IMG/VR virus record: IMGVR_UViG_3300024058_000001
Span: 40,772 to 104,771 of that record
Source of the DNA: a virus
Lineage: Duplodnaviria; Caudoviricetes
Strand: one strand, 5' to 3'
DNA length: 64,000 bases
Below the pieces are notes generated by a model that was given only the letters and a program-made list of their open reading frames with translations, was not told the origin of the DNA and searched no databases. Every line of letters begins with the position of its first letter. The stretch's first letter is position 1. The translations under genes and the position numbers were made by a program. Shown one piece after another: positions 2,572-22,486 of the stretch.

Positions 2572-5500
2572 TTACTCCAGATACCTAGCGAATGGCCCTG
2601 AATCTTGTGGTTGCTTAGGAAGTTCTTCTTTAGCTGATGCCAGCGCCCGTGATGCTTGTGCTAATTCGCTAGTTTCAAAATTTAATATAAATAATTTTCT
2701 TATTTTTTCTCTAGGATCAGATTGTCGTACACCTGGTTCTTTTAGTAACGGAAGAATAACAATATTTTGAACAAATTTTTCACTTGTAAGTTGGACGATT
2801 GTAGTAAATCCATTTACAAAACTATGAGTTACTGATCCTACTTCTAATTTCAAGTTATTGACATTTACAGAAGACCGTAAATCTATAGTTTCGTCGCCTA
2901 TTACTGTAATAGATCCACTAACTTGTGGGTCTTTTAAACGTGCTAGTTCCCCATCCGCTCTTGTTTGCATTCTTTTTAATATATCTTCTTCATTATTAAA
3001 CCCTGTAACCGAATCCTTAAGGATAGCATATTGACCATCCGTGATAGACCTGCAACGTTTACCTGTACCTGCTGTTACTTTAGGTGGATCAGCATCAATA
3101 GTAAACTCTACTTCTATAGGCCCAGTTGTAAAAAAGTAATCTAGTAACACTCTAACCTTTACTAAACCTTCAGGATCTCCCTGAATACCAACACGGGATT
3201 TCAATACCCTGCCTACCTTAGTGCTAGGTGCCCAAATTTTAGGAATTTCTTCTAAACTAACTCTTACGGCATCTTTTCCTCGGTACTCTAAGGACGCACC
3301 AATCGGTTGTCTTTCAGTGCTATATCTATTAATACTTCGTATAATAGGTCGTAGTTTTAAATCGTTTGCTGAAAAGTTTCTAGTATTTTTAAACGAAAAA
3401 GCCCGTCCTCTACTTTTGTCAAACAATGAGGTACCAAAATTAGAATTGCCAGAAGATGAATCATTAGACGTTCCTGTAAATGTTGTAGTTCGTTGACCTG
3501 TATCCTGACCTGTCAATGTTGGATTTCCACGATCATCAAATCCTACAGTTAATTTTTCTCCTGTATCTGGATCAATAAATGTATCTCCTGATCTAGCTCT
3601 TTTCTTAATTGATCCACCCTTATTTTTAAAAGTTACTGTTTTATTAGCAGAATTAGTTTCAACTTCTATTTCTGATCCCTTACTAAATTTAAATGTACTA
3701 TTTTGTTCTTTACCAAAAGAACTAGAAAAATTTCCTAATTCTGTTATACCAAAATCATTTAAACTAACTTGAATGTTATCGTCAAATCTCACAACAGGAC
3801 GTTCTTTTTGAAAACCCAAGACTTGAATATCTCTAATATTTTTACCGCTAAGATCAAACTGCAATGCATGTCTTCCAGCTTTACCGACTGTATCAATAAA
3901 ACTAGAAATACGAACAGTTTTCCGTATTTGAATAGGAGCACCAATTACTGTAATATTATCTATTGTTTCTAATTCTGTTTCTTGAACATCATAACTAATA
4001 ATATTTTTTCCAAAATTAAATGTTCTTGTCGTAAACCCACCCGACCCAAAATTATATACAGATGTTATACCTGTCGACATATCATGATAAAGTTTTGCAT
4101 TTCCAACTTTGTTTAATACAAGTTCGGCTGCTTCTAATGTAGTTAAATCGGTTATATCAATCAATCCAGGAAAATCTGTAGGCCCGTTGGTAATTCCTAA
4201 GTCTTTAAGAATTTGGTCTGCATTACGAAAAAATAAGATTTCTGAAGTATTAGAAGAAACATTGGGCAATCCCTTGATTTGTGCTGCTCTTAATTTACCC
4301 TCAGTAACTTGATTATCTGCTTTTACTTTTACTACGTTAAATACTGTAATTCCTTCATCTAATTCTTCTTCAAATAAAGCTTTTTCTGTTAATTCGATAA
4401 TAGTACTATGACACGTATAAATAACTCTAAATCCTCCACCTTCGTCTAACGCATCTGCTTTAGTGGTAATAAATCCTCTAAAAACAAGTCTGCTATTGAT
4501 TAGTACATCTATATCATCGTTTATAGCAGGATCACCACCTGGCCTAAAATCACGTGGTAAACTAAATGATGCGGTTGACAAGTTACTTCCAAAGCCTAAT
4601 CTAACTTGTTCCAATATAGCAGTAGATTCAGGAGTTCCGTTTATTTTTACTACATACGTTGGACTACTGAATCTTTCTAAATCTTTATTAAACGTAGGAG
4701 TAGCCGTTGCTTCGTTTGAATTAGGACTTTCTTGTCCTAATCCGTTAATTCCTCTAACTATAAATGTAACTGCAACACCTTCCGTTTGACCTCCAACTTG
4801 ATAAGATGTACCTTGTACGGGAAGGCTATTTACTTTTACAAATGTAGGGCCTGTATCTTTTCTAAATATGTTAAAAAATGCATTGGTTGCTGTCCAAGTT
4901 AGATTAATAGTATCTGAATTTCCTCCGTCTACTGCTATTAAACCTGTAGGAGCAGAAGGAACATCATTATCTACAGTTGTTTCAATATTTTTATCAATTT
5001 CTATATTTTTATCCATTTGTATAGTTGCAAAGAAATCTAATGGTTCTTTTATAAATCCGTTAGAGTCAATTGTTTCTTCATTTGTAACAAAAATAATTGC
5101 ATCAGAAAATATTTCTTGATCACCAATTAAAATGATTTTAGCATCTATACTAATATTTTGAGTAGAAGTTTCTCCTACAAATGTATCAGTAAGTATAGTT
5201 TCTTCACGTTCTATTTGTATAACACCTTCTGCAAAAATAATCTGAGTTGTAATCTCTCCTACAAATGCATCTGAAGTAATAAGCTTTGTTTGAGTTGAAG
5301 TAACAATTGCATCAGATGTAATAATTTCTTCATTAGTAACTACTTCGGCCATTAATGTAGCAAAACATAAATCTACTAATGATCCCGATATTTTAAACCA
5401 ATTAATACCATCTTCTGTTTTAACTGCATCTCCTCTTAAATAAAGTAAATCTAATGAATTTTTTGCATTTTCAAATTCATATCTGTTACTTGCGTCATGA

Positions 5501-7524
5501 GGAGCAGATTTAAATACAACTGCATATAGTACATTTTTTTGTAATAAAGGAGCTTGTGGTATTGTAGCTCTTGTAACAGGAGTACTTTTAGATGTTGCAA
5601 ATTCAGATTTAGCGATAGTTGTTGATCCAATTACTACACCATTAGGAAAACCATTTGTTGTTTCTTGTATTTCAATATCCATATCTCCTAATGTTCCACT
5701 ATCTACCTTTAATACCGAAAACCATATTTGAGTAAGGGCTGCTGTTTCACTAGAAGTAAACGTTTGACCTACTTGAGCCGTACCAAGTTCATCATTTAAA
5801 TCTGCTAGAGAAGATTGAAAATTAAATCTTCCCATTTGAAATTGATCAATAAATGGATTAACTTGTGCTTCCATTCTAATAACAATCGAACCATCGGCTA
5901 ATGTAAGACTACTCCAAAGCCCAGGTTCAAATTTAATAAAATGATTACCTCCAGTCATTAATCCATCTGGACTAAATCCTGTTGTTACTACAAAATAACG
6001 ATAAAAGTTTGAAGTACTTGCAGGAGTAGCAGATTTTAAAGTAATAACATATTCTATACCTGCAGTTAATACTGGCTTAGTAATAAAATTTACTGTAGTT
6101 TTTGGTGGTGAAGAAGTAAACGAAGTTGGTAAATCAGCAGGAGAAAATGCTACAGATTCAATTGGAATTCCATCGGGTACACCAGCTACTATTGTTTCTA
6201 GACTAATAATTAAATCAGAGGGAGCATTACCATTTTCAGCTATTACCAAATCTACAGAATTTAATTTTCCTGTAATTGACGGAGTAAAGCTTTGACCAGC
6301 AGAAAAACCCGCATGAATTCGATGTATATTGTTAAAGCTAAATGCTGCAAGTGCTATATTATCAATTCTAGTAGGAATTTCCAGTATCTGTGTTTGAGAA
6401 GAAACAGTATGAGTCCCTATAGGAGCAATTTCAGCATCAGAATTTATATTTTGGGTTATTTCTACTTCTTCTGCCATAAACGTAGCAAAACCCAAATCTT
6501 GGTTAGGAAGCTCACCCCAAGATGTTCCATCATTTGCTTGAACTGCACTTCCAGGACTATAATGGTTATCTGTACCTCTACCAAAAAATCTATAATTATT
6601 AACATCATTATGTGTTGCAGAAAATACAATAGCATATTTGGTACCTGATGTTAATACAGGCTTTTCGGGAATAAAAACTTCGTAAACATCAGAGGGTATA
6701 ACTGTTAATGTAAAGTCTTGCGGTCTAATTTTTCCTTGTGCTTGTATAACTGATCCAATTATTGTACCATTAGGAAGACCACCTGTAGTTTCTTGAATCT
6801 CTATATTTAAATCTCCTAATGCACCTATATTGTTTTTTATTGCAGAAAATTGAATCTTTTCAAGTTTTGCAGTTACGCTAGGCACAAAAGTTTGTCCAAT
6901 TTTTCTTGTACCTGCTACATCATCTAAACTAGTTACTGTATCAGTTCTAGTAATATTAAATTGATCTATGAATGGAGTAAAATCCACATCCATAGTAGTA
7001 ACAAAACCTATATCTTCACTTTCACGTGGCGTACCTGTAAAACTTGGACTACCAAGAAATAACTCTCCATCTGGATAAATTTCGCTAGTTGTAACAGACA
7101 TTTTTTTAAATCTTACCCCATAAAAAACAAAATTTGGAAATAAAGGTTGAAAAGATTTTAATGTAATTGCATATTTAACACCTTGTTGCAAAGGTATACT
7201 TGGGCTAAATACAACTGTTGTTGGAAGGTTAGCATCAATTCCAAAAAAGTTAGGATCTACAGGAACTGAAGAAGCTGATAAACTAGTACTACCTAATACA
7301 ATTCCACTAGGTCTAGGAGGAATCTGACTATCCATAGTTTCTATAGCAATTACTAAAGGAAATGTATAAAGACTCAAATTTCCTGGAAATCTAGAAATAG
7401 TCAAATCTATAGATACAAGATTACCCGTTACTCCAGGAGTAAAACTCTGTGCAGCGCTACTACCATCATCAATATCTATTCCTCCTGATGATACAGCAAT
7501 TGATATTTGATCTCTTTTTGGCAT
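2572..7524 (-). CDS. Large tail-tip protein: four repeated beta-sandwich domains, 14-aa repeat linker, FN3 domain and Tal/hub-like C-terminal region
   Basis: Four domains start (A/G)Q(S/T)FxP/S (AQSFTP, GQTFVP, GQSFTP, GQTFTS). FN3 signature PSAPTGL...INLTW...FIVRGINGLGQES. C-terminal hub-like region (VFRGFI, IDNITVIG, GSITVIGD...VTHSF). Position downstream of tape measure. Confidence 0.7.
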   Translation of the reverse strand: MPKRDQISIAVSSGGIDIDDGSSAAQSFTPGVTGNLVSIDLTISRFPGNLSLYTFPLVIAIETMDSQIPPRPSGIVLGSTSLSASSVPVDPNFFGIDANLPTTVVFSPSIPLQQGVKYAITLKSFQPLFPNFVFYGVRFKKMSVTTSEIYPDGELFLGSPSFTGTPRESEDIGFVTTMDVDFTPFIDQFNITRTDTVTSLDDVAGTRKIGQTFVPSVTAKLEKIQFSAIKNNIGALGDLNIEIQETTGGLPNGTIIGSVIQAQGKIRPQDFTLTVIPSDVYEVFIPEKPVLTSGTKYAIVFSATHNDVNNYRFFGRGTDNHYSPGSAVQANDGTSWGELPNQDLGFATFMAEEVEITQNINSDAEIAPIGTHTVSSQTQILEIPTRIDNIALAAFSFNNIHRIHAGFSAGQSFTPSITGKLNSVDLVIAENGNAPSDLIISLETIVAGVPDGIPIESVAFSPADLPTSFTSSPPKTTVNFITKPVLTAGIEYVITLKSATPASTSNFYRYFVVTTGFSPDGLMTGGNHFIKFEPGLWSSLTLADGSIVIRMEAQVNPFIDQFQMGRFNFQSSLADLNDELGTAQVGQTFTSSETAALTQIWFSVLKVDSGTLGDMDIEIQETTNGFPNGVVIGSTTIAKSEFATSKSTPVTRATIPQAPLLQKNVLYAVVFKSAPHDASNRYEFENAKNSLDLLYLRGDAVKTEDGINWFKISGSLVDLCFATLMAEVVTNEEIITSDAIVTSTQTKLITSDAFVGEITTQIIFAEGVIQIEREETILTDTFVGETSTQNISIDAKIILIGDQEIFSDAIIFVTNEETIDSNGFIKEPLDFFATIQMDKNIEIDKNIETTVDNDVPSAPTGLIAVDGGNSDTINLTWTATNAFFNIFRKDTGPTFVKVNSLPVQGTSYQVGGQTEGVAVTFIVRGINGLGQESPNSNEATATPTFNKDLERFSSPTYVVKINGTPESTAILEQVRLGFGSNLSTASFSLPRDFRPGGDPAINDDIDVLINSRLVFRGFITTKADALDEGGGFRVIYTCHSTIIELTEKALFEEELDEGITVFNVVKVKADNQVTEGKLRAAQIKGLPNVSSNTSEILFFRNADQILKDLGITNGPTDFPGLIDITDLTTLEAAELVLNKVGNAKLYHDMSTGITSVYNFGSGGFTTRTFNFGKNIISYDVQETELETIDNITVIGAPIQIRKTVRISSFIDTVGKAGRHALQFDLSGKNIRDIQVLGFQKERPVVRFDDNIQVSLNDFGITELGNFSSSFGKEQNSTFKFSKGSEIEVETNSANKTVTFKNKGGSIKKRARSGDTFIDPDTGEKLTVGFDDRGNPTLTGQDTGQRTTTFTGTSNDSSSGNSNFGTSLFDKSRGRAFSFKNTRNFSANDLKLRPIIRSINRYSTERQPIGASLEYRGKDAVRVSLEEIPKIWAPSTKVGRVLKSRVGIQGDPEGLVKVRVLLDYFFTTGPIEVEFTIDADPPKVTAGTGKRCRSITDGQYAILKDSVTGFNNEEDILKRMQTRADGELARLKDPQVSGSITVIGDETIDLRSSVNVNNLKLEVGSVTHSFVNGFTTIVQLTSEKFVQNIVILPLLKEPGVRQSDPREKIRKLFILNFETSELAQASRALASAKEELPKQPQDSGPFARYLE
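5041..5345 (-). repeat. Seven tandem 14-aa repeats (consensus xxxxQ/ExIxSDAxI) inside the large tail protein
   Basis: VVTNEEIITSDAIV/TSTQTKLITSDAFV/GEITTQIIFAEGVI/QIEREETILTDTFV/GETSTQNISIDAKI/ILIGDQEIFSDAII/FVTNEETIDSNGFI. Confidence 0.85.
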
Positions 7525-7525
7525 A

Positions 7526-7951
7526 TTAGTTCACAACTATTCTTCCGTCTTTGTGTATTTTCATTATCCTTTTATGATTTTTTTCATTTTCGTCTGTATA
7601 TTGGAATCCTAAATAATAAACATGTTCAGGTGTACCAACTTCTACTAGATTATTTCCAAATGTTCTTGTTACTTCCCTATAATAAATAAGCCGATATTTG
7701 TAAGGATTTTTCCTTAGCATATCGGCCCTGGGCTGTAATCGTTCACTAGCAGTCTTCGCTGTTTCGATTGTTCCTTTTTCTAAGTCAACAATGTAACTAA
7801 GTCCATCAGCTTCTTGTAATCCAAAAAGCTGTAACTCATCCTGCCTTTCTAGTACATCTTTAAATAGTCTCTCTTTATCGCCTTCAAATTGATTTATTGA
7901 ACTTCCATCTTTAAACACTGCAAACCAAGGTAACGTTATCATGTTAACCAT
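7526..7951 (-). CDS. Hypothetical protein (possible assembly chaperone); start reassigned to the ATG at 7951
   Basis: GGAGG SD lies just upstream of ATG 7951. The track start at 8005 falls inside a hairpin. Confidence 0.6.
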   Translation of the reverse strand: MVNMITLPWFAVFKDGSSINQFEGDKERLFKDVLERQDELQLFGLQEADGLSYIVDLEKGTIETAKTASERLQPRADMLRKNPYKYRLIYYREVTRTFGNNLVEVGTPEHVYYLGFQYTDENEKNHKRIMKIHKDGRIVVN

Positions 7952-7996
7952 GTTAGCCTCCATTAAATTTGGGATATTGTATTGTATTACAAATAC

Positions 7997-8025
7997 CCCT
8001 AGCAACTAGCATTGAATTGCCAGGG
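7997..8025 (-). terminator. Stem-loop downstream of the 154-aa structural gene
   Basis: Minus strand CCCTGGCAATT-N7-AGTTGCTAGGG (with G-U pairs) right after the stop codon; weak U-tract. Confidence 0.55.
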
Positions 8026-8030
8026 TCTTA

Positions 8031-8495
8031 TTAAGTCTCGTCGTATTTCAACGTAAACGTCTTCTGGTTAACTGCACCAGGAGGAGTTGAAACAGTTGTC
8101 TGTAACTGCAAGGTCATGTAACCCGAAAAATCAGGATTACCTGCAGGAGCAGCAGGAGTTAAAGCTGCGCCTTCAGTTGTTGGAATATCAACCGTTGCAA
8201 CAATAGACGTAGTGTCAGTAGGAGTAGCAAAAGTCGCATCAACTGCTGCTTTAATTGCTTCACCAGTAACAAACGTACCTGCTGATTTGAAAAAACGCAA
8301 ATTAGCAATAGACGTAAATGTTCCAGAGAACCTTCCACGAAGCCACTTCTCAAAGCTATTATTACCAGCCGTGATAGGGTCGTTAGTAGGTACAATGTTA
8401 ACTGCATCTACACTACCGAAATTCGCATTAGCGATTCCGTTAGTTACTGTTTCAGCTACTGTATTGCTTTCACTGAATTCAAATGTTGCTGCCAT
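8031..8495 (-). CDS. Small Thr/Ala-rich beta-sandwich virion protein, probably abundant (pilin/fibre-subunit-like)
   Basis: 154 aa, beta-rich. Its 21-nt leader is identical to that of the major capsid gene, and it has a 3' hairpin like the other major structural genes. Confidence 0.65.
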   Translation of the reverse strand: MAATFEFSESNTVAETVTNGIANANFGSVDAVNIVPTNDPITAGNNSFEKWLRGRFSGTFTSIANLRFFKSAGTFVTGEAIKAAVDATFATPTDTTSIVATVDIPTTEGAALTPAAPAGNPDFSGYMTLQLQTTVSTPPGAVNQKTFTLKYDET

Positions 8496-8502
8496 GATTA
8501 AA

Positions 8503-8523
8503 TCACCACCTTTCTTTTATAGG
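8503..8523 (-). promoter_or_regulatory. Strong translation leader CCTATAAAAGAAAGGTGGTGA (copy 2)
   Basis: Exact 21-nt match to 25072-25092 upstream of the capsid gene. Confidence 0.85.
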
Positions 8524-9657
8524 TTATCCTTTAAATGATACTCTTATCCGAAATCTTATATTTAAAATTCCAGATGGACTAGCACTTGTAGGAGGAGTTA
8601 TACTTAAGTTAAGAAGTTTCGCATTATTAGATGGAATAGGATTTTCAAATAAATGAACGATTTCTTGTCCAATCAGTGAAAATGTCGTTTCTGCATCGTC
8701 TTCTATTTCATATTCATAATCTATTAGTACATCTTCTGTAGCAGAAGGCAGAGCAGTTCCTAATGTAATTTCCCCTGATATTCCATCAAATGTCCCACTT
8801 GTAAAAAAGTTAGTTCCTAATCTATTAGGATCACTATTTAAAAATACACCAACAACTGCTATAAGGGGAGTATGACTAACAGTAACAGTTGTATCTGTAT
8901 CAGATGTTTGTCTTTCTAAATCTACTATTACAGGATTACTAATAATTCCGCTTGATTGTACACCAAACCAATCTTGTGATGCAACTTCTGAACCAAAGTC
9001 TTTTACATTTGGCGAATATGTTACAGTAATATTTTGAGTAGCTGGAGGGATTTTACCTGTTACTCCGTCCCCAAATGATAATAATCCACTTGCAAAACTA
9101 AATGTGTATATCTCATCCGTAGAACCAAATCCTGCTAAATTATCTACCCTTGTATATACAATTCCGCCAACTCGTACAATTAAAGGGTACAATACGTCAT
9201 CATCTAAAACAGGAGGAAATGCAACAGTAAAGGTTTGGCTTGCTGCTCCTGTACTAGCACCTTGCAATTCATCAATAAGTTCTAATGATAAAATTCGGAA
9301 TTGAATATCTCTAGCATCTACAGATTCAAAACCTCCACCTTTATCATTAAACAATTGAAAAGGATTATCAGGATGCTGAAATTCTTCTCCAGCTATTACA
9401 CCTGTAAACACTAAAGGATTGCTCTCTATACCTACCTCCACAGTTGGAGCCGTAGATGCAAATAGCTTTAAATCAGGTTCATTTTTAGTAATCTGTGCAT
9501 CAGAAAATATAGTCTCTGTAAATTCCACTAAAACTATAGAATCTGATTCAACAGTTTGAGTAGTAATAAGCTGTATTGTTGCATCAGACAGTAAATTTTG
9601 TGTTACTGTACCAAAAATAGTTGCATCTGATGTAACATTCTGCTGTACTGTAGGCAT
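8524..9657 (-). CDS. Tail/baseplate-associated protein with four N-terminal 14-aa SDAxI repeats
   Basis: N-terminal repeats, plus an internal FGDGVTGKIP motif typical of baseplate wedge-type beta domains. Confidence 0.65.
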   Translation of the reverse strand: MPTVQQNVTSDATIFGTVTQNLLSDATIQLITTQTVESDSIVLVEFTETIFSDAQITKNEPDLKLFASTAPTVEVGIESNPLVFTGVIAGEEFQHPDNPFQLFNDKGGGFESVDARDIQFRILSLELIDELQGASTGAASQTFTVAFPPVLDDDVLYPLIVRVGGIVYTRVDNLAGFGSTDEIYTFSFASGLLSFGDGVTGKIPPATQNITVTYSPNVKDFGSEVASQDWFGVQSSGIISNPVIVDLERQTSDTDTTVTVSHTPLIAVVGVFLNSDPNRLGTNFFTSGTFDGISGEITLGTALPSATEDVLIDYEYEIEDDAETTFSLIGQEIVHLFENPIPSNNAKLLNLSITPPTSASPSGILNIRFRIRVSFKG

Positions 9658-9658
9658 A

Positions 9659-10087
9659 TTAGACGTTTTGCTCCAATGTATTTGGAATTTTAATTGTTAT
9701 ATTGTAATCTTGTATATTACCATGTGTTTGTTCTTGAAATTGAATACCATCTGTTGCTATTTGTCCGTCATATCGTAAATGCCTAGTCGGGCTAAGTATA
9801 TGCAATTGCCCTGGGCCAACTTGTATTCCATTAATTAAATTATTTCTGAGTGTTTCCATATCATCCCAACTATTTGTTTTATTGAATAGAACACCCTTTA
9901 GTTCAATAGTACGTTCATTTACCCCAAGTTCTTGTACAATTGCGCCATCTAATAAAGGTACAATCAATCTAGCAGTTCGTTTACCAGGCGTAGGTCTAGT
10001 AATAAAAGGATTAGGAAAAAATGTAAATGTTCCTTGATCCCCATTAACACCTCTGCGCCATTCTACTGTTACTTTAACTGTGCTCAT
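9659..10087 (-). CDS. Distal tail (Dit)-like protein
   Basis: 142 aa immediately after the tape measure gene; tube-fold-like pattern (VPLLDGAIVQELGVNERTIELKG). Confidence 0.6.
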   Translation of the reverse strand: MSTVKVTVEWRRGVNGDQGTFTFFPNPFITRPTPGKRTARLIVPLLDGAIVQELGVNERTIELKGVLFNKTNSWDDMETLRNNLINGIQVGPGQLHILSPTRHLRYDGQIATDGIQFQEQTHGNIQDYNITIKIPNTLEQNV

Positions 10088-11733
10088 TATCCAAATGTAT
10101 CCTGTGCGCGTTCTTCTCTACCTGCATTAGTGGCCTCTCGTCTTATATTGTTTAGTTTCGTATTAACAGCAGCCTGTGCTCCCTCTCTAGTTGCTTCTTT
10201 AATATCTTCTGATGATATACTAAGATTTACTATTACATTAGATAAAGGTTTCAATGCTGCTTCGATTGCACCACCTAAAAAATCTCCAATTTCTGATCCA
10301 AGCTTTAATATACCGTCTAATCTTCCTTTAAATTTTGATAAGGATATATCAGCATCAGTAATCGCCCCGTCTACCGCAAGAAATTCGTCAAAGGATTTAG
10401 TAATAAGCTTATTTGATTCTAATTGTTGTTTAATTAAAGCAAAAAAATCTTCTCCAATTTGCTTAATAGCTTCTGTAGCAGTTAAGCCACCTTGTCTAAA
10501 ATCCTTAAATTGTTGTGCGATATCTCCAAATATTCCAGTTATACCATCTGCTCCCTTTTCTCGTTGTAGCTCTTTAAGTCTTTTTTGACGTTCTTTAAAC
10601 GTATCTTCTTCTGTTTCTGTTGTTGCTCTTATTTCATCTCTTATACCCTGTTGAAAAAATCTAAATTGATTGCCGAATTCCAATTGCTCTGCTGTTAATG
10701 TTGAAAGTCCCGCACGTTGAGCTTGTAATAATAGAGCATCTGCTTTTGTAACATCTCTAGCTAATTGTTGACGTTCTATACGGGTTTTCCCTAACCTTAA
10801 TGATTGTAACTCTAATGCTTTATTAAAATCAAATATTTTGCTAGTAGTAGAACCAATAGCATCATCAACATCTTGATTTTTAAATGCATTGACTAAAGCT
10901 TGTGCAATTCCAATAGTACCCTCACCTGAAATAAGTGCTTTTGTTGCTCCTTTTATTGCTCTTGTAAATTTAAGATTAATGACATTTGATGCTATAGCAA
11001 TATCTGTAGTAAACTTATTGAAAGCAAGTCCAGTTTTACCTGTTTCTTTATCTAGTTCGTCTTGAACATTAGCTAAAATTTGTAATTTAGAAGCTAAAGT
11101 GTCAGTTTCATCTGCTGCTGCTCCACCAAATTTTTCCGCTAATTTATCCAGCAATGTACCTTGACGAATTGCTGCCTTGATGTCTGCCCGTCTTAAGTCT
11201 GTTAATTGCAGAAGAACCCGAATATTACCTTTTTGAGCAAGATTTAATATGCGAGTTGTAGTAGTTAAATCTCGACCAGTTGCTGCAGCCACATCTTGTG
11301 CTACAATAACAGTTTTTTGTGCCTTTTCTAAGTCTCTCGTAGATTGCAACGCAATGGTAGTAGCTCGTTGTACATCTTGAACAGAAAATCTAGTGGTACG
11401 GGCCGTTTGTTCCGCACCACGTGTGATTAAAGCAGCACTCTTTTCGCTTTCTTCGCCCACTAATCGTAATTGTGTGCGTAATCGTACAAACGATGCTTCT
11501 GCAGATATTGCTTGTTGATTTGTTTTAGTAAATCCAACAGCAGCTTTTGCAATTGAAGAAACAAGAAAAATACCTGCAGCAATGCCTAGCGTTTGAGCAC
11601 TAAACGCAATAGACGCAAGAACACCCGCAAGCTTTAGCCCTGTGCCAATTACACCTTTAAAACCAGCTTTTGCAGCGTTAAAGCCTGAAGCATCAAATTT
11701 TGATGAAATTCTAAAAAGTAAACTACTAGCCAT
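10087..11733 (-). CDS. Tape measure protein
   Basis: Ala-rich helical protein after the tail chaperones; N-terminal FRISSKFDASGF and AQDVAAATGRDL motifs. Confidence 0.85.
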   Translation of the reverse strand: MASSLLFRISSKFDASGFNAAKAGFKGVIGTGLKLAGVLASIAFSAQTLGIAAGIFLVSSIAKAAVGFTKTNQQAISAEASFVRLRTQLRLVGEESEKSAALITRGAEQTARTTRFSVQDVQRATTIALQSTRDLEKAQKTVIVAQDVAAATGRDLTTTTRILNLAQKGNIRVLLQLTDLRRADIKAAIRQGTLLDKLAEKFGGAAADETDTLASKLQILANVQDELDKETGKTGLAFNKFTTDIAIASNVINLKFTRAIKGATKALISGEGTIGIAQALVNAFKNQDVDDAIGSTTSKIFDFNKALELQSLRLGKTRIERQQLARDVTKADALLLQAQRAGLSTLTAEQLEFGNQFRFFQQGIRDEIRATTETEEDTFKERQKRLKELQREKGADGITGIFGDIAQQFKDFRQGGLTATEAIKQIGEDFFALIKQQLESNKLITKSFDEFLAVDGAITDADISLSKFKGRLDGILKLGSEIGDFLGGAIEAALKPLSNVIVNLSISSEDIKEATREGAQAAVNTKLNNIRREATNAGREERAQDTFG

Positions 11734-11962
11734 TTGCTATCCTGTAAGTGGTTCTTCCTTTTCTTGAATTTGACGGAATATTCTCCATCTGTTTTTCTAC
11801 GGTGCGTACTGCTTCTTTGTTTTGTTCTGCTAACATAGCAGTTAAAACACGCATTTGTTCAGTTGTTAAATCGTCTGTATATTCCGTTTTAAATACTTTG
11901 TATCTATAGGAGTTTGCCACGTGAAACGGAGCTAAAAAGTATGGACTCCTTATTAGTTTTTT
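11726..11962 (-). CDS. Tail assembly chaperone, -1 frameshift extension (gpGT-like)
   Basis: The -1 frame from the slippery site reads KLIRSPYFLAPFHVANSYRYK... with no stop, continuing into ORF 11726-11920. Confidence 0.8.
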   Translation of the reverse strand, partial: KKLIRSPYFLAPFHVANSYRYKVFKTEYTDDLTTEQMRVLTAMLAEQNKEAVRTVEKQMENIPSNSRKGRTTYRIANG

Positions 11963-12519
11963 ACTTCTTCATCCGTTAATACAAAATACTTTTCCCATCT
12001 ATTATACAGATCAAAAATAGTCAATTCATCTATTTGAGCGATTTCTTCTAAAGATTTAAAGTACCGAATCGTTTTATCATTTTTTTGTTTCAAGGCACAA
12101 AAAACCGTCATATATCGTTCTTCAGCAGCTATGCGAATTAATTGCACATCAGGATCAAATTTATATCGACTGAAATGCACAATTGCTTCAGTAATAGCAG
12201 CCTTGACATCATTTAAATCACGCCAAGTCATAGGAAGTAAAATACCTTCTATTTTATCTTTCTCAAATTCTGCTAGTTGTTCTTCAGCAAATTGCTTTTT
12301 TTCGTTAAGGATTTTAATTTGTTTTTCGTCCTTAACTTCGCTTAACTGCTCGTCTATGCGTATAGCATTATCTTGCAATGTTTCGACGGACGATGTATGA
12401 CGGTAAACACTAACCTCCAACGGAGGATTGTTTAATTTTTGATACGCTTTTGTTGCAACCTTCTCTTTAACTAAACTATCTACTAATTTCTTAGAATTAA
12501 CTTTTTCTTCAGTATTCAT
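11953..12519 (-). CDS. Tail assembly chaperone (gpG-like)
   Basis: Lies between tail tube and TMP, has a GGAGG SD and ends in a slippery heptamer. Confidence 0.8.
   Translation of the reverse strand: MNTEEKVNSKKLVDSLVKEKVATKAYQKLNNPPLEVSVYRHTSSVETLQDNAIRIDEQLSEVKDEKQIKILNEKKQFAEEQLAEFEKDKIEGILLPMTWRDLNDVKAAITEAIVHFSRYKFDPDVQLIRIAAEERYMTVFCALKQKNDKTIRYFKSLEEIAQIDELTIFDLYNRWEKYFVLTDEEVKN
11956..11962 (-). promoter_or_regulatory. Programmed -1 ribosomal frameshift heptamer A AAA AAC
   Basis: GTA AAA AAC TAA at the end of the chaperone ORF, between the tail tube and tape measure genes. Confidence 0.85.
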
Positions 12520-12540
12520 TGTAGCCTCCCGATTTATTTT

Positions 12541-12583
12541 GAAGGGGGGAATAGCAAGGCAATTAGCCCTGCTATGCCCCTTC
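12541..12583 (-). terminator. Long stem-loop downstream of the tail tube gene
   Basis: GAAGGGG-C-ATAGCAGGGC-TAATT-GCCTTGCTAT-TCC-CCCCTTC, followed by an A-rich rather than U-rich tract. Confidence 0.6.
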
Positions 12584-12604
12584 AGTATGTATACTGATTA
12601 TTTT

Positions 12605-13366
12605 TTAAGAATCAATATATGTAGTAAAAGCTTCAAAAACGTCATCTGTAGAAAAATCAGCTTCAGGAATTGTAATAGTACTACCTACTAAAGTAGCATT
12701 ATCAAATTTGTCACCATTTTTCAATACAAGAATTAACGCTTTGCCATTTAAATCTGCATCCGCAGCTTCAACAGCCTGTGGAGTATTGTCTGTATCTGCC
12801 TCAAAATTACCTGACACAAGTGCAGCAACTTTATCAGCTTGTGAATTTGAATTGCCTTGAGCAAAAGCACTAGAACCTGATCTCAAAAGTCGACTATATT
12901 CTAAAGCCACACCTTTAAGTCTTAGTACGTTTGTAGACGTACCATCACGGGTAATAGCACCTTCTTCTCTTACAGGTTCACCTGTAGCAGAACCTCTAAT
13001 CCTTGTAAACTTACAAAGAACCGACTGAAAAATAACACTATCAGAAGGTCTACGAATATTTAACATAATCGTAATTTCTTTATAATTAGCAGGATCATCC
13101 ACTGTAGCAACTGCACTTGGATCTAAATCATTAATAGACGTATCCACTAGTTTACTATCAGTATCAAAATAATTAAAACTAATTTCTACGCCATCAAAAT
13201 TTGTCACAATAGCAACTGCTTCGGCTGAATCAAATTCAAAAATTCTTCGTTCATCAAATGCTGGAGTATAGTCAAAATTCTGCGCCAACGGCACACGAAC
13301 TGCACCATGACTCTGACTTACTAATTCCAGCAGTGTATTTGTTCCAACAACTGTTTCAATGCCCAT
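12605..13366 (-). CDS. Major tail tube protein
   Basis: Position between tail terminator and chaperones; strong GGATGGTGA SD; 3' hairpin; acidic beta-rich 253 aa. Confidence 0.75.
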   Translation of the reverse strand: MGIETVVGTNTLLELVSQSHGAVRVPLAQNFDYTPAFDERRIFEFDSAEAVAIVTNFDGVEISFNYFDTDSKLVDTSINDLDPSAVATVDDPANYKEITIMLNIRRPSDSVIFQSVLCKFTRIRGSATGEPVREEGAITRDGTSTNVLRLKGVALEYSRLLRSGSSAFAQGNSNSQADKVAALVSGNFEADTDNTPQAVEAADADLNGKALILVLKNGDKFDNATLVGSTITIPEADFSTDDVFEAFTTYIDS

Positions 13367-13381
13367 TTATTTCACCATCCT

Positions 13382-14014
13382 TTAATTTATCTCTGTATCT
13401 GAGTTTAGATTTTGTGTTACGTTTAACTGTTGACCTAATTCGTTCCAAAACACTCTAATCAGGAGTATGTATCTTTTTACATTTTGGTTTTCTTGATCTA
13501 CAATAAACTTTTCGTTAATTGAGTTACTTTCTTTATCAAGCTCTATAAACCCTATTACGGGTTTATTAGGATTGCTATAATCCCTTAATTGAATTGTCGA
13601 CACATCGGGAGTACTAGTGTGACCAGCATTTGTAAGTGCAAAAATAACTCTATCACGCAAATTTCTTACTACGCGAGTTGAACCTGTAAATGTTTCACTA
13701 TCTTGCGAAATACAGGTTATTTCAATAAGTGTTTGATTACGAACACCAAAAATTGGAGAGCCATCGGGAGAATGACCAATCAATTTATCAAACGCTCGTT
13801 CCCCTAAGTTAAATAATCCTCTTTCTGTTGTGCTAATTGCAGGAAACTGTTGGGGAGCAATTGGATAGTCGAACACCCAAAAAAATTCTTCGCCACTGGG
13901 TAATGGTGGACTACCCAAATGCCCTCCGTCTATATTTTCAATAAGCCAATTGTTAAAAGAGGCCATCAGGTTTTCTTTTCCTGAACTATGTACGAAACCT
14001 TTTGGAACTGGCAT
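13382..14014 (-). CDS. Tail completion/terminator protein
   Basis: Synteny and FPAISTTE motif; ends with one SDAxI-type motif (VTQNLNSDTEIN). Confidence 0.65.
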   Translation of the reverse strand: MPVPKGFVHSSGKENLMASFNNWLIENIDGGHLGSPPLPSGEEFFWVFDYPIAPQQFPAISTTERGLFNLGERAFDKLIGHSPDGSPIFGVRNQTLIEITCISQDSETFTGSTRVVRNLRDRVIFALTNAGHTSTPDVSTIQLRDYSNPNKPVIGFIELDKESNSINEKFIVDQENQNVKRYILLIRVFWNELGQQLNVTQNLNSDTEIN

Positions 14015-14625
14015 TATATGTCAATCTCCGTAACCTTTGGAGGGCGCACAACTTTTCCCTCTTTTTCCATCTTCTTTAACCATTCTCCATAAAATTTAGT
14101 AAACCATAATTCCCCTGCATAACGTGCTCTTGTAGTAAAATGTACACCTTTACCAAAATCCATTGCATCTTTATATGGTACTTGATTATCAACTGCTATC
14201 TCTTGTACTGCAGGAGTTTTATCTTCTGCAACACTAGATGCTTTCCCTTCTGCAACCGAACTTGCACTAAAATGATATTCTTTATGATAAGGAGTTTTAT
14301 TGGATTTTTTAAATGGATCATATAACGATGTATCTTTAATTTGTCTACTATAATCTATTGTGTATTTATCTAAAATAGCAGTCCAACCACCGCGCAATTT
14401 TCCTGTATCCATAGGAGTTACTCTTATTAAATATTTATGTATTTCAAATACTAAATTTCTGTATAATTCTAAATTATATTTAGAAAATCTTTTAATAGAT
14501 TTTTCAATTTCTTTTGTTTCTTTAATGTTCTCTATAGTAAGAGTAACTTTAAGGGGGCCACTTCTTTGTCTAGAACGTTGTTCCGCTTCTGATTTTATAT
14601 TTACACCAAAAACTGTTTCACCCAT
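14014..14625 (-). CDS. HK97 gp10-like neck protein
   Basis: TPMDTGKLRGGW motif; synteny. Confidence 0.75.
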   Translation of the reverse strand: MGETVFGVNIKSEAEQRSRQRSGPLKVTLTIENIKETKEIEKSIKRFSKYNLELYRNLVFEIHKYLIRVTPMDTGKLRGGWTAILDKYTIDYSRQIKDTSLYDPFKKSNKTPYHKEYHFSASSVAEGKASSVAEDKTPAVQEIAVDNQVPYKDAMDFGKGVHFTTRARYAGELWFTKFYGEWLKKMEKEGKVVRPPKVTEIDI

Positions 14626-15056
14626 TATGCATTCCCCACTTTTCTAAATATATATCCAAATAAAACTTCTTTACCTATAATTGAATGAGTATGAGATTTA
14701 CCTACTATACGATATTCATGCTTTTCATAAATAATTCTATCGCCTTCACTTTGCCCGCCAATTTGCTCAGTAGTATCTATAATATTAAGTTTTTCTGTAA
14801 GAGTAACAGAAATATCGCCTAATTGATAAAGTCCACCAGAATATAATACATCTTGTTGACTAACACTATTAATAACTGCTTTTGCAGGTTTTCTACTAAA
14901 TCCTAGCTTGGGTTGTATTCCTCTTGCAGGATCGCCTGGATCAGCTATACCAGTAAACTTTTTAATGATAATAGGCTCTCCATAAGGTACATTAGTACTT
15001 GCTAATGCATCATCAATAAATTTCCTATCTTTATCACTAAACTGTTCACCAGCCAT
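14625..15056 (-). CDS. Head closure (stopper) protein
   Basis: GDRIIYEKHEYRIV motif, size and synteny. Confidence 0.7.
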   Translation of the reverse strand: MAGEQFSDKDRKFIDDALASTNVPYGEPIIIKKFTGIADPGDPARGIQPKLGFSRKPAKAVINSVSQQDVLYSGGLYQLGDISVTLTEKLNIIDTTEQIGGQSEGDRIIYEKHEYRIVGKSHTHSIIGKEVLFGYIFRKVGNA

Positions 15057-15058
15057 AT

Positions 15059-15829
15059 TTAAACCTTCTCATCTGTTTCAGGTTGTTGATATTCTTCTTC
15101 TTCTTTTTTTTCTTCTTTTTTTGGTTCTTTAGGATCGTTTTTTCTAATTTCATCTTTCCTTGTAAGCATAGTTTTTTTAGTCTCCCTAATTTTTTGTTCT
15201 AATGCAACTCTATCTCCGCCAGTAGTTTTTAATCTTTCATTAGATAACATTTCTTGTTCTTCTGCATATTTACTGGATATAGCTGACGATTTAATAGCAT
15301 TTCCATCATATTGATAATTGCAACAATTATTCCAATCAACATCATCTGTAATAATTTTGCAAGTACTTGGTTGTTGAAATCTTATACAACGTATGCATCC
15401 AAAACCTTCATCTCTCTCATCGTATCCAGCTTCTTCTTTTAATAATCTAAAAGGATTTGTTTGACTAGGTTTTGCATTTGGCCCCGTCATACGTAATTGA
15501 CAAGTACCTTCTGGTTCTATATGTCCTAGAACATTAGTGCATTCGCCTGTTTCTGGAATGTACATACTACAAGTTACACATTGATATTTTCCTTCTATAT
15601 CATCTGTAACTAAGACAACCATTTTGCCATCGCCTAACATAATATTTCTTTTTTCAATTGCTTTTTCAAACTCTTCTTTTAAAATAGATACTGATTCATT
15701 CTTAACAAACAAATGGACAAATCTTCTACCACCATCTGTTACTGTTGTACCTTTTCTAATTGTGTTTAATTGTTCTTCCGTAACATCAATACGATAACCT
15801 TTAATTATAACTGAATATATTTTGCTCAT
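15059..15829 (-). CDS. Protein with a shared N-terminal leader domain and two HiPIP-like Cys4 modules
   Basis: C-x2-C-x9-C-x12-C and C-x2-C-x8-C-x12-C; the first ~60 aa are similar to the N-terminus of ORF 37043-39343. Confidence 0.6.
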   Translation of the reverse strand: MSKIYSVIIKGYRIDVTEEQLNTIRKGTTVTDGGRRFVHLFVKNESVSILKEEFEKAIEKRNIMLGDGKMVVLVTDDIEGKYQCVTCSMYIPETGECTNVLGHIEPEGTCQLRMTGPNAKPSQTNPFRLLKEEAGYDERDEGFGCIRCIRFQQPSTCKIITDDVDWNNCCNYQYDGNAIKSSAISSKYAEEQEMLSNERLKTTGGDRVALEQKIRETKKTMLTRKDEIRKNDPKEPKKEEKKEEEEYQQPETDEKV

Positions 15830-16575
15830 TAGCTTATCTCCGCATCAGATAATATTGCTTGAATAGTTTGTTCACCTATAAATGCATCGTTTGATATTGT
15901 TTCAATATTTATTATCTTAGGTAAAATTCGATTAGTCTTATTGTAATGCCGAAGCATTTGTAAATCAGATAATAATTGTGCTTCATTATCTTGAATTATT
16001 TGATTTGTTTGACTAACAATATTAGATTTATTAATTGTACGTCCACCAACACTTACACTAAAGAAATCTTTTGATTCTAAAATTAAAGCTCTTAGTACAT
16101 TAGTATAAAAACGTTTACAAATAGCAGGTCTATAATCTTCAGGAATATTATCTTGATCAACAGGTCTATATATTAAAACTGATATTTCACTAGCAGAATG
16201 ACTAGCTATTTGGAATAACTGTGGATCAGTAAAAGGAAAGAATGTATATGTTGCTATCAAGGATTCATCGGTAGTTAGTGGAGTAAGTAATACAACACGT
16301 CCACCAATAAAATCAATAATATAATCATCTGTTTCAAATAGCAATTCTGATACACCAGTAATATTATTAAGTTTCTTTATCTTTGGTTTGGGAACAGCTT
16401 GCCAGTTACCGTTCTTTGCATCAAAAACACCATTAGATGAATCAAACGGACATAATTCTTCGTCCACTACGCTACATAACAGTTTAGTTAATAGCACATC
16501 TTTACACAATTGTGTAATCTCTGTTATATCATCAGGAATTGCTATTGATGGATCTAAAAAGATAACGTCAGACAT
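15829..16575 (-). CDS. Head-tail adaptor-like protein with two C-terminal SDAxI repeats
   Basis: Near the stopper gene; FFSVSVGGRTINKS beta-hairpin typical of adaptors; inserted DYIIDFIGGRV beta domain. Confidence 0.55.
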   Translation of the reverse strand: MSDVIFLDPSIAIPDDITEITQLCKDVLLTKLLCSVVDEELCPFDSSNGVFDAKNGNWQAVPKPKIKKLNNITGVSELLFETDDYIIDFIGGRVVLLTPLTTDESLIATYTFFPFTDPQLFQIASHSASEISVLIYRPVDQDNIPEDYRPAICKRFYTNVLRALILESKDFFSVSVGGRTINKSNIVSQTNQIIQDNEAQLLSDLQMLRHYNKTNRILPKIINIETISNDAFIGEQTIQAILSDAEIS

Positions 16576-16585
16576 TTGTTACTCC

Positions 16586-17167
16586 TTAATTTCCTATGAC
16601 GTTGTGTGTTCCGTTAGCGAACACCACAAGATCATGTGTTTCTCTAATAATACCTGTCTTAAAAAATTCTATTAAATACAATGCAGCATCTAAAAACACA
16701 GTTGCATTCCCTGAAGCATCTGTTTGTGCAACAGCAATAGCAACTGCAGGATTGGATTTGTCAAATATTCTAATTTGAGCATTGGGAATAGGAACAAGTG
16801 TAACTGAATTCTTTACAGTTACTGTAACTGCAAATGCTCCAGAACCTGTCGTACCATCAACTGGCACAACTCTGTATTCTTCTGTTGCCACAGTTGGAAT
16901 TCCATCTATAGTAGTATTAAACGTAGTTAAATATTTTGTAAAAGATGCATTAGATGCAATAGGAAATTTAAAAAACCACCTGTTAGTGGCACCAATTCTA
17001 GTCATAGCAGTTGATGCTAAATCTTCTTCTTCAGGCCCCCCATTAATATGAGAGATCCTAACAGTAGGCGTAGTATAATCTGCAGGAAATGTTGGTTCAC
17101 TTCCTGACAGTCTTAGCACTGTTAAGAGTATAGTATTTTCTTGACTTTGATTAAATTCAAATCCCAT
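16586..17167 (-). CDS. Ig-like virion protein (carboxypeptidase-regulatory-like domain)
   Basis: PIPNAQIRI...TDASGNATVFLDAALY pattern. Confidence 0.6.
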   Translation of the reverse strand: MGFEFNQSQENTILLTVLRLSGSEPTFPADYTTPTVRISHINGGPEEEDLASTAMTRIGATNRWFFKFPIASNASFTKYLTTFNTTIDGIPTVATEEYRVVPVDGTTGSGAFAVTVTVKNSVTLVPIPNAQIRIFDKSNPAVAIAVAQTDASGNATVFLDAALYLIEFFKTGIIRETHDLVVFANGTHNVIGN

Positions 17168-19497: not shown

Positions 19498-19893
19498 TTA
19501 TCCTCCCATTGTTAGAAATAGTCTTCCAAAACTTGCAGGTGCTGCCACAGGAGTATCACTAGTTCCTGTATTAATCCATACACGTTTATCAGTAACACTA
19601 GAAATAGATCCACCTGATGTAACAACCTCTGCAATAGGAATCCGTCCAGACGTAAAGCCTGATGTATTAGTCGAAGCAACTCCAACAGACGTTATCTCCA
19701 CAAAATTTGTAGTATTATTAGTTAATACAACATTTTGAGAAGACGCATTTGTAATAACATTGTCATCACGTATACGGCCAGCTTTAACAGTTAAATTTAA
19801 ACCTGATGCAGCTAGGGGCCCAAAGTCTCTAAGATCATCAATTAAAACATCTAAATCTCTAATTTGTCCTGAACGAACTTCTGTACGTGCCAT
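19498..19893 (-). CDS. Short paralog of the long fibre protein
   Basis: Shares the N-terminus and the GFTxGRIPxAEV domain with ORF 20321-22486. Confidence 0.65.
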   Translation of the reverse strand: MARTEVRSGQIRDLDVLIDDLRDFGPLAASGLNLTVKAGRIRDDNVITNASSQNVVLTNNTTNFVEITSVGVASTNTSGFTSGRIPIAEVVTSGGSISSVTDKRVWINTGTSDTPVAAPASFGRLFLTMGG

Positions 19894-20320: not shown

Positions 20321-22486
20321 TTATGGTTTTCTGTAAGAAACAAGCACTTCGTCGCCAGATAAAGGAGCAGAATTAAATGTAATCGTAGCTCCAGAGATGG
20401 TGTAGTCGTCAGACCCACCCTCATTCTGAAGAATACCATTCAAGTATACTTCCTCTGTTCCAGCAGTAGGTGTGTTCGCAAGAACACCAGTAGTATCTGC
20501 GCCATCAAAATCAAACGCCACGTCTTCACGTGTAATAAAGTTTGATTCCGTAAGACCTCCACTACCAGCACTTTCTGCGTCCAACCATGCTCGTCTGTCA
20601 ACAATTGCCGTAATGTCGCCTGAAGCAGCAGTAACTTCTGCAAGCGGAATGCGTCCAGCCGTAAAGCCAGAAACATTATTCGATACAGTACCGCTACCGT
20701 CTACTTCGACAAATGACACGTCATCATCAGCTACAGTGGTAGTACCAGCACTTACTGCGGTAACAACGTTATCATTTCTAACGGTGCCTGCAGCAAAATC
20801 AGCAACTAGTCCTGTACCTTCTGTAACTTGAAGATCACTAAGATGGTCTACATCAACTGCACCAGACACAATTTCGTCTGAATCGACAGAATCAGTAGCC
20901 AGTTCATTAGCTGTAATACCACTAGCTTTAATACGAAGAGTATCCGCATTAATTTCTATTGTGGAGTCATCAACATTTACGTCAAGTTCTCCGCCAGCAG
21001 CTTGGCCTAAACCAAGACCAGCAATATCGGCATTAATAGCATCCTTATCTACTGAGTCAGGAGCGTAATGCTCTGCATCAATAGAATCTGCTACGTAATG
21101 CTCACTGTCAATTTGGTCGTCGCCAATCTTTGCGCTAGTAACCGCATCAGCAGCCAGTTGAGCCGTATCAATACCTAAATTTTTAACATTCAAGGTATCG
21201 GTAGTAATCTCAATAGTGGTATCATCAACATTTACGTCGAGTTCGCCACCAGCAGCTTGACCTAAGCCAAGACCTGCGATATCAGCATTGATTGCATCTT
21301 TATCAACTGAATCAGGAGCATAATGTTCGGCATCAATAGAATCAGCCACATAATGTTCGCTGTCAATTTGATCATCAGCAATCTTCGCACCAGTCACAGC
21401 ATCAGCAGCTAATTGAGCAGTGTCAATACCTAAATCTTTAACATTTAGGATATCAGCAGAAATCTCAATAGTAGAATCATCTACTCTAACACTAAGTGTG
21501 TTACCAGACTTTAGAAGACCATCACCAGCAGTAATTTGGCCTGCACCAGAAAACTGGGCAAACTCCAAAAACTTGTTAGCTTTGCTACTAGTTAGTGTAA
21601 TAGGATCATTGGCAGTAAGAACAAAACCATTATCCTTATTAACTGTACCTTCCTCAATGAAGGTAAACAAACCAGCAGTGACTTCAGCATCAGTATCGGC
21701 ATCGGTAGTACGAGTAAGAGTCAACGTAGTTGACGTTCCACCAGTAACTTCCCAAAGACCATTGTAAACACCGCGAGTAGCTTCTGTGCCACCTGCATCG
21801 GTTGTTTCATCTGAAGCCGTTTCAGCATCTTTAATGAGAATTCTATTTCCAGAAACAGGCTCTACCCCGTCAATAAGACCAAGGGAGGCACCTGCACTTA
21901 AACTAGAAATCGTCATAACCCCAGTAGCACTGACAACATCAATAGTAACACTTGAAGTCCAGTTGGAATCAGAATCTGTAGCCATACGAGCAGAAAGTTT
22001 AACATCTAAACCTTGTGCAACGCCATCTACATAAAGTTTGTTAGCTGCGTCAGTGTCAACCAACGGAGTTTTAACTCTAATTGTACCACTAGGAGAAAAA
22101 TCATACGTTGCCGTAAGATCAAGCTCCGAAGCAGTAACAGCATCAGTCGCAATTTCATTTGACGTAATGCCACTAGCTTTAACCTGCAATGTATCAGCAG
22201 AGATTTCAATAGTAGAATCATCGACGTTAACCGATAAAGCACTACCTCCACCACCACCTAAGCCATCGCCAGCTACAGAAGAGTTAAGCTGTGTTCCAGT
22301 AATACCTGCGTCTTTGACTTTGAGTACATCTGTATCAATCGTCAGTGTACTATCATCGTCATTAACTTCTAAAGCAGCGCCACCGCCACCAACTAAACCA
22401 TTACCAGCTACAGAAGTGTTAAGTTCTGTCTCTGTAACAGTTGCAGCTTTAATTTGTACATTTCCTCTAATTTGTGTAACAGCCAT
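20321..22486 (-). CDS. Long acidic fibre protein (head/collar fibre-like)
   Basis: Repeated VNVDDSTIEI and AVTxAKI shaft motifs; C-terminal VYLNG...DYT domain; GGGGTGA SD and 3' hairpin. Confidence 0.75.
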   Translation of the reverse strand: MAVTQIRGNVQIKAATVTETELNTSVAGNGLVGGGGAALEVNDDDSTLTIDTDVLKVKDAGITGTQLNSSVAGDGLGGGGGSALSVNVDDSTIEISADTLQVKASGITSNEIATDAVTASELDLTATYDFSPSGTIRVKTPLVDTDAANKLYVDGVAQGLDVKLSARMATDSDSNWTSSVTIDVVSATGVMTISSLSAGASLGLIDGVEPVSGNRILIKDAETASDETTDAGGTEATRGVYNGLWEVTGGTSTTLTLTRTTDADTDAEVTAGLFTFIEEGTVNKDNGFVLTANDPITLTSSKANKFLEFAQFSGAGQITAGDGLLKSGNTLSVRVDDSTIEISADILNVKDLGIDTAQLAADAVTGAKIADDQIDSEHYVADSIDAEHYAPDSVDKDAINADIAGLGLGQAAGGELDVNVDDTTIEITTDTLNVKNLGIDTAQLAADAVTSAKIGDDQIDSEHYVADSIDAEHYAPDSVDKDAINADIAGLGLGQAAGGELDVNVDDSTIEINADTLRIKASGITANELATDSVDSDEIVSGAVDVDHLSDLQVTEGTGLVADFAAGTVRNDNVVTAVSAGTTTVADDDVSFVEVDGSGTVSNNVSGFTAGRIPLAEVTAASGDITAIVDRRAWLDAESAGSGGLTESNFITREDVAFDFDGADTTGVLANTPTAGTEEVYLNGILQNEGGSDDYTISGATITFNSAPLSGDEVLVSYRKP
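20967..21483 (-). repeat. Tandem 255-bp (85-aa) duplication inside the fibre gene
   Basis: DDQIDSEHYVADSIDAEHYAPDSVDKDAINADIAGLGLGQAAGGELDVNVDD occurs twice, 255 nt apart. Confidence 0.9.

Follow-up and report, generated by a model that had tools for sequence, protein, structure and literature searches.

A portable 14-residue repeat in siphophage neck and tail proteins as a candidate fibre-shaft module

In the genome of an uncultured siphophage, the same 14-residue unit recurs in four virion proteins, which raises the question of what such a unit does. The stretch analyzed here (the window; 64,000 nucleotides) comprises bases 40772-104771 of the complete 104,771-bp IMG/VR record IMGVR_UViG_3300024058_000001, which has direct terminal repeats. 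An earlier note on this DNA proposed that all the copies bind a single shared partner, an incomplete beta-sandwich. We favor, as somewhat probable, a different answer: the unit would be the building block of an undescribed, oligomer-dependent and probably trimeric repeat that forms fibre shafts or tethers in tailed phages, with accessory stubs on ring proteins.

The units are encoded by four minus-strand virion genes, within a minus-strand structural module that forms a single block (region 400-22,500). All 15 are in strict 14-residue register, and none occurs elsewhere in the six frames of the genome. They are distributed as follows.

5050..5343, minus strand: seven tandem units, tip protein residues 728-825, between the lectin-like domain D2 and an FN3 domain
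6427..6468, minus strand: single unit, tip protein residues 353-366, between D1 and D2, the two copies of a lectin-like domain, which it joins
9490..9657, minus strand: four units at the N-terminus of p377, from Met1 (register and unit model)
13388..13429, minus strand: one unit at the C-terminus of p210, with only Asn before the stop codon (register and unit model)
15835..15918, minus strand: two units at the C-terminus of p248, with only Ser before the stop codon (register and unit model)

The count of 15 copies in four proteins, first given in the earlier note, is borne out by register, by a hidden Markov model (HMM) of the unit and by cross-validation. Across the 892 six-frame open reading frames (ORFs) of the 104.8-kb genome, the 15 copies score 7.5-14.9 bits and the next real match 3.1 bits; the sole other match above this value, at 11.1 bits, comes from the p377 array read on the opposite strand. 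When the model was built from p377 alone, the top out-of-sample real matches were the p210 C-terminus and the unit at residue 353 of the tip protein. A model built from p248 and p210 ranked that same tip unit and a p377 unit first. The consensus core is (T/K)-(Q/E/K)-T-I-x-S-D-A-x-I, with T7, I8, S10, D11, A12 and I14 conserved and Q, E or K at position 6. The alternation of I8, S10, A12 and I14 suggests a beta strand that is buried on one side. Units repeat every 14 residues (every 15 in some relatives), and units 3 and 4 of the seven-unit tip array are degenerate yet in register. A weak two-unit periodicity is also present: Gly at position 1 tends to reappear two units further on.

Mean identity between the window units is 28% for amino acids and 47% for nucleotides, and Tandem Repeats Finder did not detect the arrays. 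These two observations indicate that the similarity is kept at the protein level, by selection on the protein. They also rule out recent DNA-level duplication as the source of the units. The arrays of the window proteins had no match in Pfam or PHROG, nothing relevant in PDB (phmmer, hmmsearch) and no usable match in the ESM Atlas. A "cap" rule, by which Glu at position 13 would identify the final unit of an array, was true at protein C-termini and failed for array ends in general. Covariation between neighboring units, examined as a guide to a meander, a solenoid or a triple helix, reflected only homogeneity within each protein and was uninformative.

The longer arrays of the window are found in two proteins of the tail end of the module.

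2572-7524, minus strand: tip protein, 1650 residues, arranged D1-m1-D2-m7-FN3-hub-like C-terminal part (m, array with its number of units)
8524-9657, minus strand: p377, arranged m4-core
8524..9447, minus strand: core of p377, all-beta, an accessory protein of baseplate type and putative anchor domain (AlphaFold2 (AF2) predicted local distance difference test (pLDDT) score ~90)

Residues 1-352 and 385-727 of the tip protein are an internal duplication of a lectin-like domain of ~340 residues, a double jelly-roll, and both motif sites come directly after the domain end FAT(F/L)MAE. D2 was modeled by AF2 as a double jelly-roll (pLDDT ~90), and its structural matches in Foldseek are baseplate and central-fibre proteins of phages together with lectins, either fungal or F-type. 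The p377 core aligns with baseplate proteins of a contractile injection system (VIA-align Z = 13) and of phage P1 (Z = 9.8), over residues 126-218 only. In two AF2 monomer runs with alignments, the flanking domains reached pLDDT ~90 and the arrays had no secondary structure at pLDDT 33-50 (33-43 for the seven-unit tip array, below 50 for the N-terminus of p377). Low confidence in monomer models is usual for segments of fibres that are obligate oligomers. The earlier note had considered that the repeats might fold only on themselves; in these monomer models they are left unfolded.

The unit extends far beyond this phage. A profile of three units was searched against 1.84 billion representative proteins (clusters at 50% identity), and 183 protein clusters with arrays were obtained at E <= 1e-3. 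Arrays are N-terminal, C-terminal or internal, and the longest unbroken run in exact 14-residue register has 17 units. Pfam analysis of 87 array proteins revealed that the joined domains include Laminin_G_3, DUF4082, Lectin_like, F5/8-C and fn3, and no repeat family was assigned over the arrays themselves. The motif is a portable module, conserved at the protein level, that sits on folds with no relation to one another, either at their termini or where domains meet; the earlier note was right on this placement. Read from the gene sequences, arrays covalently join lectin-like heads to two anchors, namely the p377 core and the FN3-hub tip. This arrangement argues against the proposal that every copy serves one common beta-sandwich partner.

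Some array proteins have little else. A 960-residue ORF of a 168-kb phage is a nearly pure array of ~60 units, and the array of locus L157 has 17; ORFs of this kind behave as a fibre shaft would, and they also count against the common-partner proposal. Proteins of L188 (IMGVR_UViG_3300032046_005540, 168 kb), L157 and P0200 have an N-terminal W-D-x-x-N-W-D-D-G-R-x-W-D motif, then 17 to ~60 units and little more, and probably represent a class of pure fibres. A different context was observed in L010 and L011, where tandem paralogous genes of ~60 residues (...DADP..QEGDLWYR...LK.R.NG.T.T) are present; one paralog has a C-terminal array of 4-5 units and adjoins a PF26696 (PTL_trimer) gene.

Comparison of relatives shows that units are gained and lost whole, in steps of 14 residues. 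Homologs of p377 have 0-5 N-terminal units and lengths of roughly 308 + 14n residues, and others have a Laminin_G_3 domain followed by 5-6 units. Among 22 aligned adaptor (p248) sequences, including the query and reaching down to 43% identity, two units are present in 11, one in 10 and none in one, and the length classes lie ~14 residues apart. Arrays also mark the junctions at which the genes of related phages are fused or split differently, as in the following arrangements.

Window: tip D1-m1-D2-m7-FN3-hub; p377 m4-core
L005: single 790-residue protein, D-m9-core
L003: D-m11-KLF* protein, separate core, tip Met-m3-FN3-hub
L012: D-array protein, separate core, tip Met-m1 and then FN3
L009: LamG-array-core and Met-m1-FN3

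The separate cores in L003 and L012 have 307/308 residues. A further relative, G003 (97.9 kb; loci L015/L023, IMGVR_UViG_3300035208_003134), has no arrays. At the tip array position, between lectin head and FN3, it has a poly-Ser linker of ~210 residues, and C-terminal poly-Ser tails are present on Dit (~180 residues) and, in short form, on the terminator and tube proteins. The linker is an (S)n run broken by R, K or C. The genes concerned are listed below.

L015:11796-14501: tip ORF
L015:9817-10803: Dit
5457-6059: terminator
6086-6922: tube

Poly-Ser at equivalent sites suggests that the array and stub sites hold a linker or a tail, and it is a further point against a common partner for every copy.

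In p377, the junction strand NEPDLKLFAS (residues 57-70; 9448..9489, minus strand) lies directly after the last unit, and its residues 63-67 were modeled by AF2 at pLDDT ~93, in a stretch that is folded from about residue 60 on. Thirteen independent representatives of head-array clusters end in ...EPxLKLYVV* at the extreme C-terminus. The common 308-residue cores begin just past the EPxLKLY strand and have no equivalent of p377 residues 63-67. In L003 (16495-18021 and 18023-18949) and L012 (16990-18336 and 18501-19424), a head-array gene adjoins a gene for such a strand-less core. This pattern of fused and split genes, of the Rosetta-stone type, suggests strand complementation in trans, in which the donor would be the EPxLKLY strand. 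The earlier note had given the donor role to the 14-mer, and the split arrangement found here does not involve it; no acceptor for the 14-mer was identified.

The units on p210 and p248 belong to a different class, that of short C-terminal stubs on ring proteins. Matches to PHROG in this region are weak and compatible with a siphophage having a type-1 neck (Ad1-Hc1-Ne1-Tc1). The relevant genes are as follows.

15829-16575, minus strand: p248, putative head-tail adaptor, 248 residues (role from gene order only)
14625-15056, minus strand: head closure Hc1 (PHROG E = 0.007)
14014-14625, minus strand: Neck1/tail completion (PHROG E = 6e-4)
13382-14014, minus strand: p210, putative tail terminator/Tc1 (role from gene order only)
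12605-13366, minus strand: putative tube (gene order)
10087-11733, minus strand: putative tape measure, 548 residues (gene order)
9659-10087, minus strand: putative Dit (gene order and a weak baseplate-hub match)

Beyond Dit, the order is p377, p154, p159, the 1650-residue tip protein and p722. The names adaptor and tail terminator are taken from gene order and from the weak PHROG matches of the neighbors Hc1 and Neck1; p248 and p210 themselves had no match in Pfam, PHROG or PDB. A tblastn search of GenBank phages with p248 and p377 gave no match.

Across phages, stubs of one or two units occur at the C-termini of four ring proteins (adaptor, terminator, Dit and head-closure protein).

Adaptor and terminator stubs: window, L003, L005, L012, L013
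Dit stubs: L005, L012, L007
Head-closure protein stub: L007

The p210 stub is present in five of ten aligned homologs, and all cores end in RIFWFEL with or without it. Since the cores of ring proteins end at the same conserved residues in both cases, the stubs appear to be accessory. Their sequence is conserved and commonly ends in S-D/N-A/T-E-I/V plus one residue. The stubs could be small exposed tails, seeds on which array-bearing fibres dock, or the binding sites of a partner. Several candidates for their function were rejected. A glycosylation tag is not supported here, as both the window genome and G001, which has neither stub, are without a GT1 glycosyltransferase. Neither p193 (16586-17167) nor the p131-type domain is tied to stubs as a partner, as both are retained where adaptors have none. 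A third candidate partner, p109, was represented by few loci. The p131 protein (19498-19893) also recurs as an N-terminal domain of ~107 residues in longer fibre proteins with varied C-terminal heads, including LamG_3 (L003:1351-2634; L007:1338-3008; L012:7007-8686), and appears to be another anchor module, distinct from the first, within the gene block proximal to the head.

Taken as a fibre-shaft repeat, the unit would work as follows. Tandem arrays would fold into a shaft only on oligomerization, probably as trimers like other phage fibres. In the window phage, the shaft would tether the lectin-like heads D1 and D2 to the tail-tip protein, and on the baseplate-type p377 the array would form a short N-terminal stalk. 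Cut to one or two units, the module would provide accessory C-terminal tails on neck rings, here the adaptor and terminator and, in relatives, also the head-closure protein and Dit.

Several observations weigh against this explanation. In many proteins, a bare array stands at one end with no head attached, which would suit docking in trans. A stub is kept by 21 of the 22 adaptors, most of them with the ending ...S-D/N-A/T-E-I/V-x*. Adaptor and terminator stubs are both present in five phages and both absent in six (G001, L006, L007, L009, L022 and G003), and the adaptor of G001 diverges no more than those of stub-bearing phages. This conservation and joint presence or absence point to a specific function that the shaft model leaves unexplained, and single units on 6- or 12-fold rings fit a three-fold shaft in no obvious way. 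The low AF2 confidence could equally reflect a partner-dependent fold, a flexible tether or a poor alignment of the repeats. A small protein encoded beside p377, p154, was found in all examined array-bearing contigs of sufficient completeness other than G008.

The last point belongs to a rival explanation, which is close to the earlier note and which we regard as unlikely. Each unit would be an epitope for a small conserved beta protein that coats arrays and ring stubs, most plausibly the following p154; its neighbor p159 is listed with it.

8031-8495, minus strand: p154, small and highly conserved, candidate trans-acting partner
7526-8005, minus strand: p159

The most conserved protein of the module is p154, with a mean column identity of 66% over 14 phages (30-50% for its module neighbors). 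The array contigs that have it include unrelated contexts (L102 and L103) and contigs found independently by DNA pattern, and G003, which has lost the arrays, is also without p154 and p159. Conserved single terminal units and arrays that are unfolded alone in AF2 also speak for this explanation. However, p154 could not be detected in G008 (168 kb, 90% complete), which has ~60 units, and homologs of p154 at or below 38% identity, plus a few at 45-50%, have no detectable arrays within 10 kb. Moreover, p154, p159 and p193 all persist in phages without ring-protein stubs, and the co-occurrence of p154 with arrays is confounded by shared ancestry and synteny. Both p154 and p193 were among the candidate partners of the earlier note (p159 was not), and their persistence without stubs speaks against a common partner. 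Searches of Pfam, PHROG, PDB and the ESM Atlas with p154 returned nothing. As a separate observation, p154 and p159 are paired in a conserved cassette of two genes at 54 IMG/VR loci, well beyond the clade of the window; in L102, where p154 lies near the capsid gene, the two genes are located between capsid and neck genes and flank a glycosyltransferase/methyltransferase fusion.

A second rival, which we consider quite improbable, is a homotypic "velcro", in which the arrays and stubs of different polypeptides co-assemble into a mixed beta-shaft, and in which array-bearing fibres or heads encoded separately would dock in trans on bare arrays and on the ring-protein stubs. Complete small genes that encode a domain followed by a terminal array without a virion anchor (P0159 and P0144), and the many anchors that open exactly with Met and an array, would fit such an assembly. 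So would the joint gain and loss of adaptor and terminator stubs; speculatively, 12 adaptors and 6 terminators could form six three-chain bundles. The ring tails and tip linker of G003 are also of one sequence type. Against this, the non-neck arrays of the window are all on tail-tip proteins, which should be ~80 nm from the neck judging by the 548-residue tape measure, and in L007 the stubs are on Hc1 and Dit only. A positional code in which units on the adaptor, terminator, Dit, p377 and tip are read either by p154 or by each other is, overall, also unlikely.

The weakest rival holds that arrays are neutral, exchange-tolerant junctions for domain shuffling and that stubs are scars of lost heads; we think this very unlikely. 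In its favor, genes are fused or split, and heads exchanged, at arrays; copy number varies by whole units; and poly-Ser is distributed alike in G003. Against it, the window units share only ~47% of nucleotides and form no DNA repeat that Tandem Repeats Finder detects, the stub sequence is kept across adaptors that are only 45% identical, and no longer adaptor-array-head fusion was found in a search that was weak.

Other features of the structural module were recorded alongside this analysis. A Cys-rich protein of 256 residues with a Lys/Glu-rich tail is encoded between the adaptor and Hc1 (15059-15829). Most relatives keep only its first ~60 residues (65-80 residues in L003, L012 and L013), and the 190-residue counterpart in L005 keeps residues 51-220 instead. 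The ORF at 20321-22486 encodes a fibre-like protein of 721 residues with repeated DDSTIEI.ADTL.VK segments and contains a tandem duplication of 255 bp (20967-21481; 2 copies, 83% matches).

If the unit is a fibre or stalk repeat, it is one that is missing from Pfam and PDB and yet present in uncultured phages, in 183 or more protein clusters. The order lectin head, array, anchor would then be a reading rule for the adhesion devices of this clade and could aid annotation and host-range prediction. The natural split and fused pairs (head-array-strand and core) provide test cases for the modular attachment of phage appendages. If the docking code were true instead, a phage would set appendage sites from neck to tail tip by adding or removing tags of 14 residues, and neck-ring tags that proved to be docking sites would be a compact, portable means to position proteins on the virion.

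Among known systems, the triple beta-spiral is one close parallel to the proposed fibre shaft. Triple beta-spiral shafts, as in the adenovirus fibre, reovirus sigma1 and PRD1 P5, consist of tandem repeats of ~15 residues in variable copy number, need trimerization to fold, and connect a virion anchor to a receptor-binding head. The arrays are likewise short tandem repeats, putatively of beta structure and of variable number, between anchor and head. They differ in that the triple beta-spiral has 15-16 residues, hydrophobic positions c, e, g, k and m and a Gly/Pro turn, whereas the period here is 14, with no conserved Gly or Pro in the consensus TQTIxSDAxI. The arrays match no PDB chain, and single units also stand alone at the C-termini of ring proteins.

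Donor-strand complementation in chaperone-usher pilins (Fim, Pap), where one subunit lends an alternating hydrophobic strand to the incomplete Ig-like fold of another, has a logic similar to that of a head-array protein ending in EPxLKLYVV* beside a 308-residue core. The Ig-like domain of the p377 core gave weak VIA matches (Z ~6) to pilins and PapD-like domains, a level that Ig-like domains commonly reach with one another. The candidate donor differs from the 14-mer, being the EPxLKLY strand, and complementation is suggested here only by fused and split genes and one AF2 model; Pfam and PHROG scans of the structural genes revealed no chaperone or usher families.

Siphophages of lactococci and streptococci have adhesion devices ("evolved" Dit/Tal, neck passage structure) that are reported to bear carbohydrate-binding modules (CBMs) at several virion sites, from neck to tail tip, and to exchange them modularly (PMC6669499, PMC7533335), which is a likeness to this clade. 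In contrast, the heads here are on a dedicated repeat stalk, the rings have bare repeat without a CBM, and there is no sequence relationship.

Beta-solenoids with a period of 14-15 residues, such as the Lolium ice-binding protein and the RTX beta-roll, are similar in period, and one array protein had a marginal Pfam match to LbR_Ice_bind (E = 9e-4). Their consensus differs, however, and AF2 monomers build no solenoid from the arrays. Finally, poly-Ser/Thr linkers and tails occupy the same positions as arrays and stubs in G003, but the conserved hydrophobic periodicity of the unit (I8, A12 and I14) argues that it folds as beta structure and is not simply a flexible linker.

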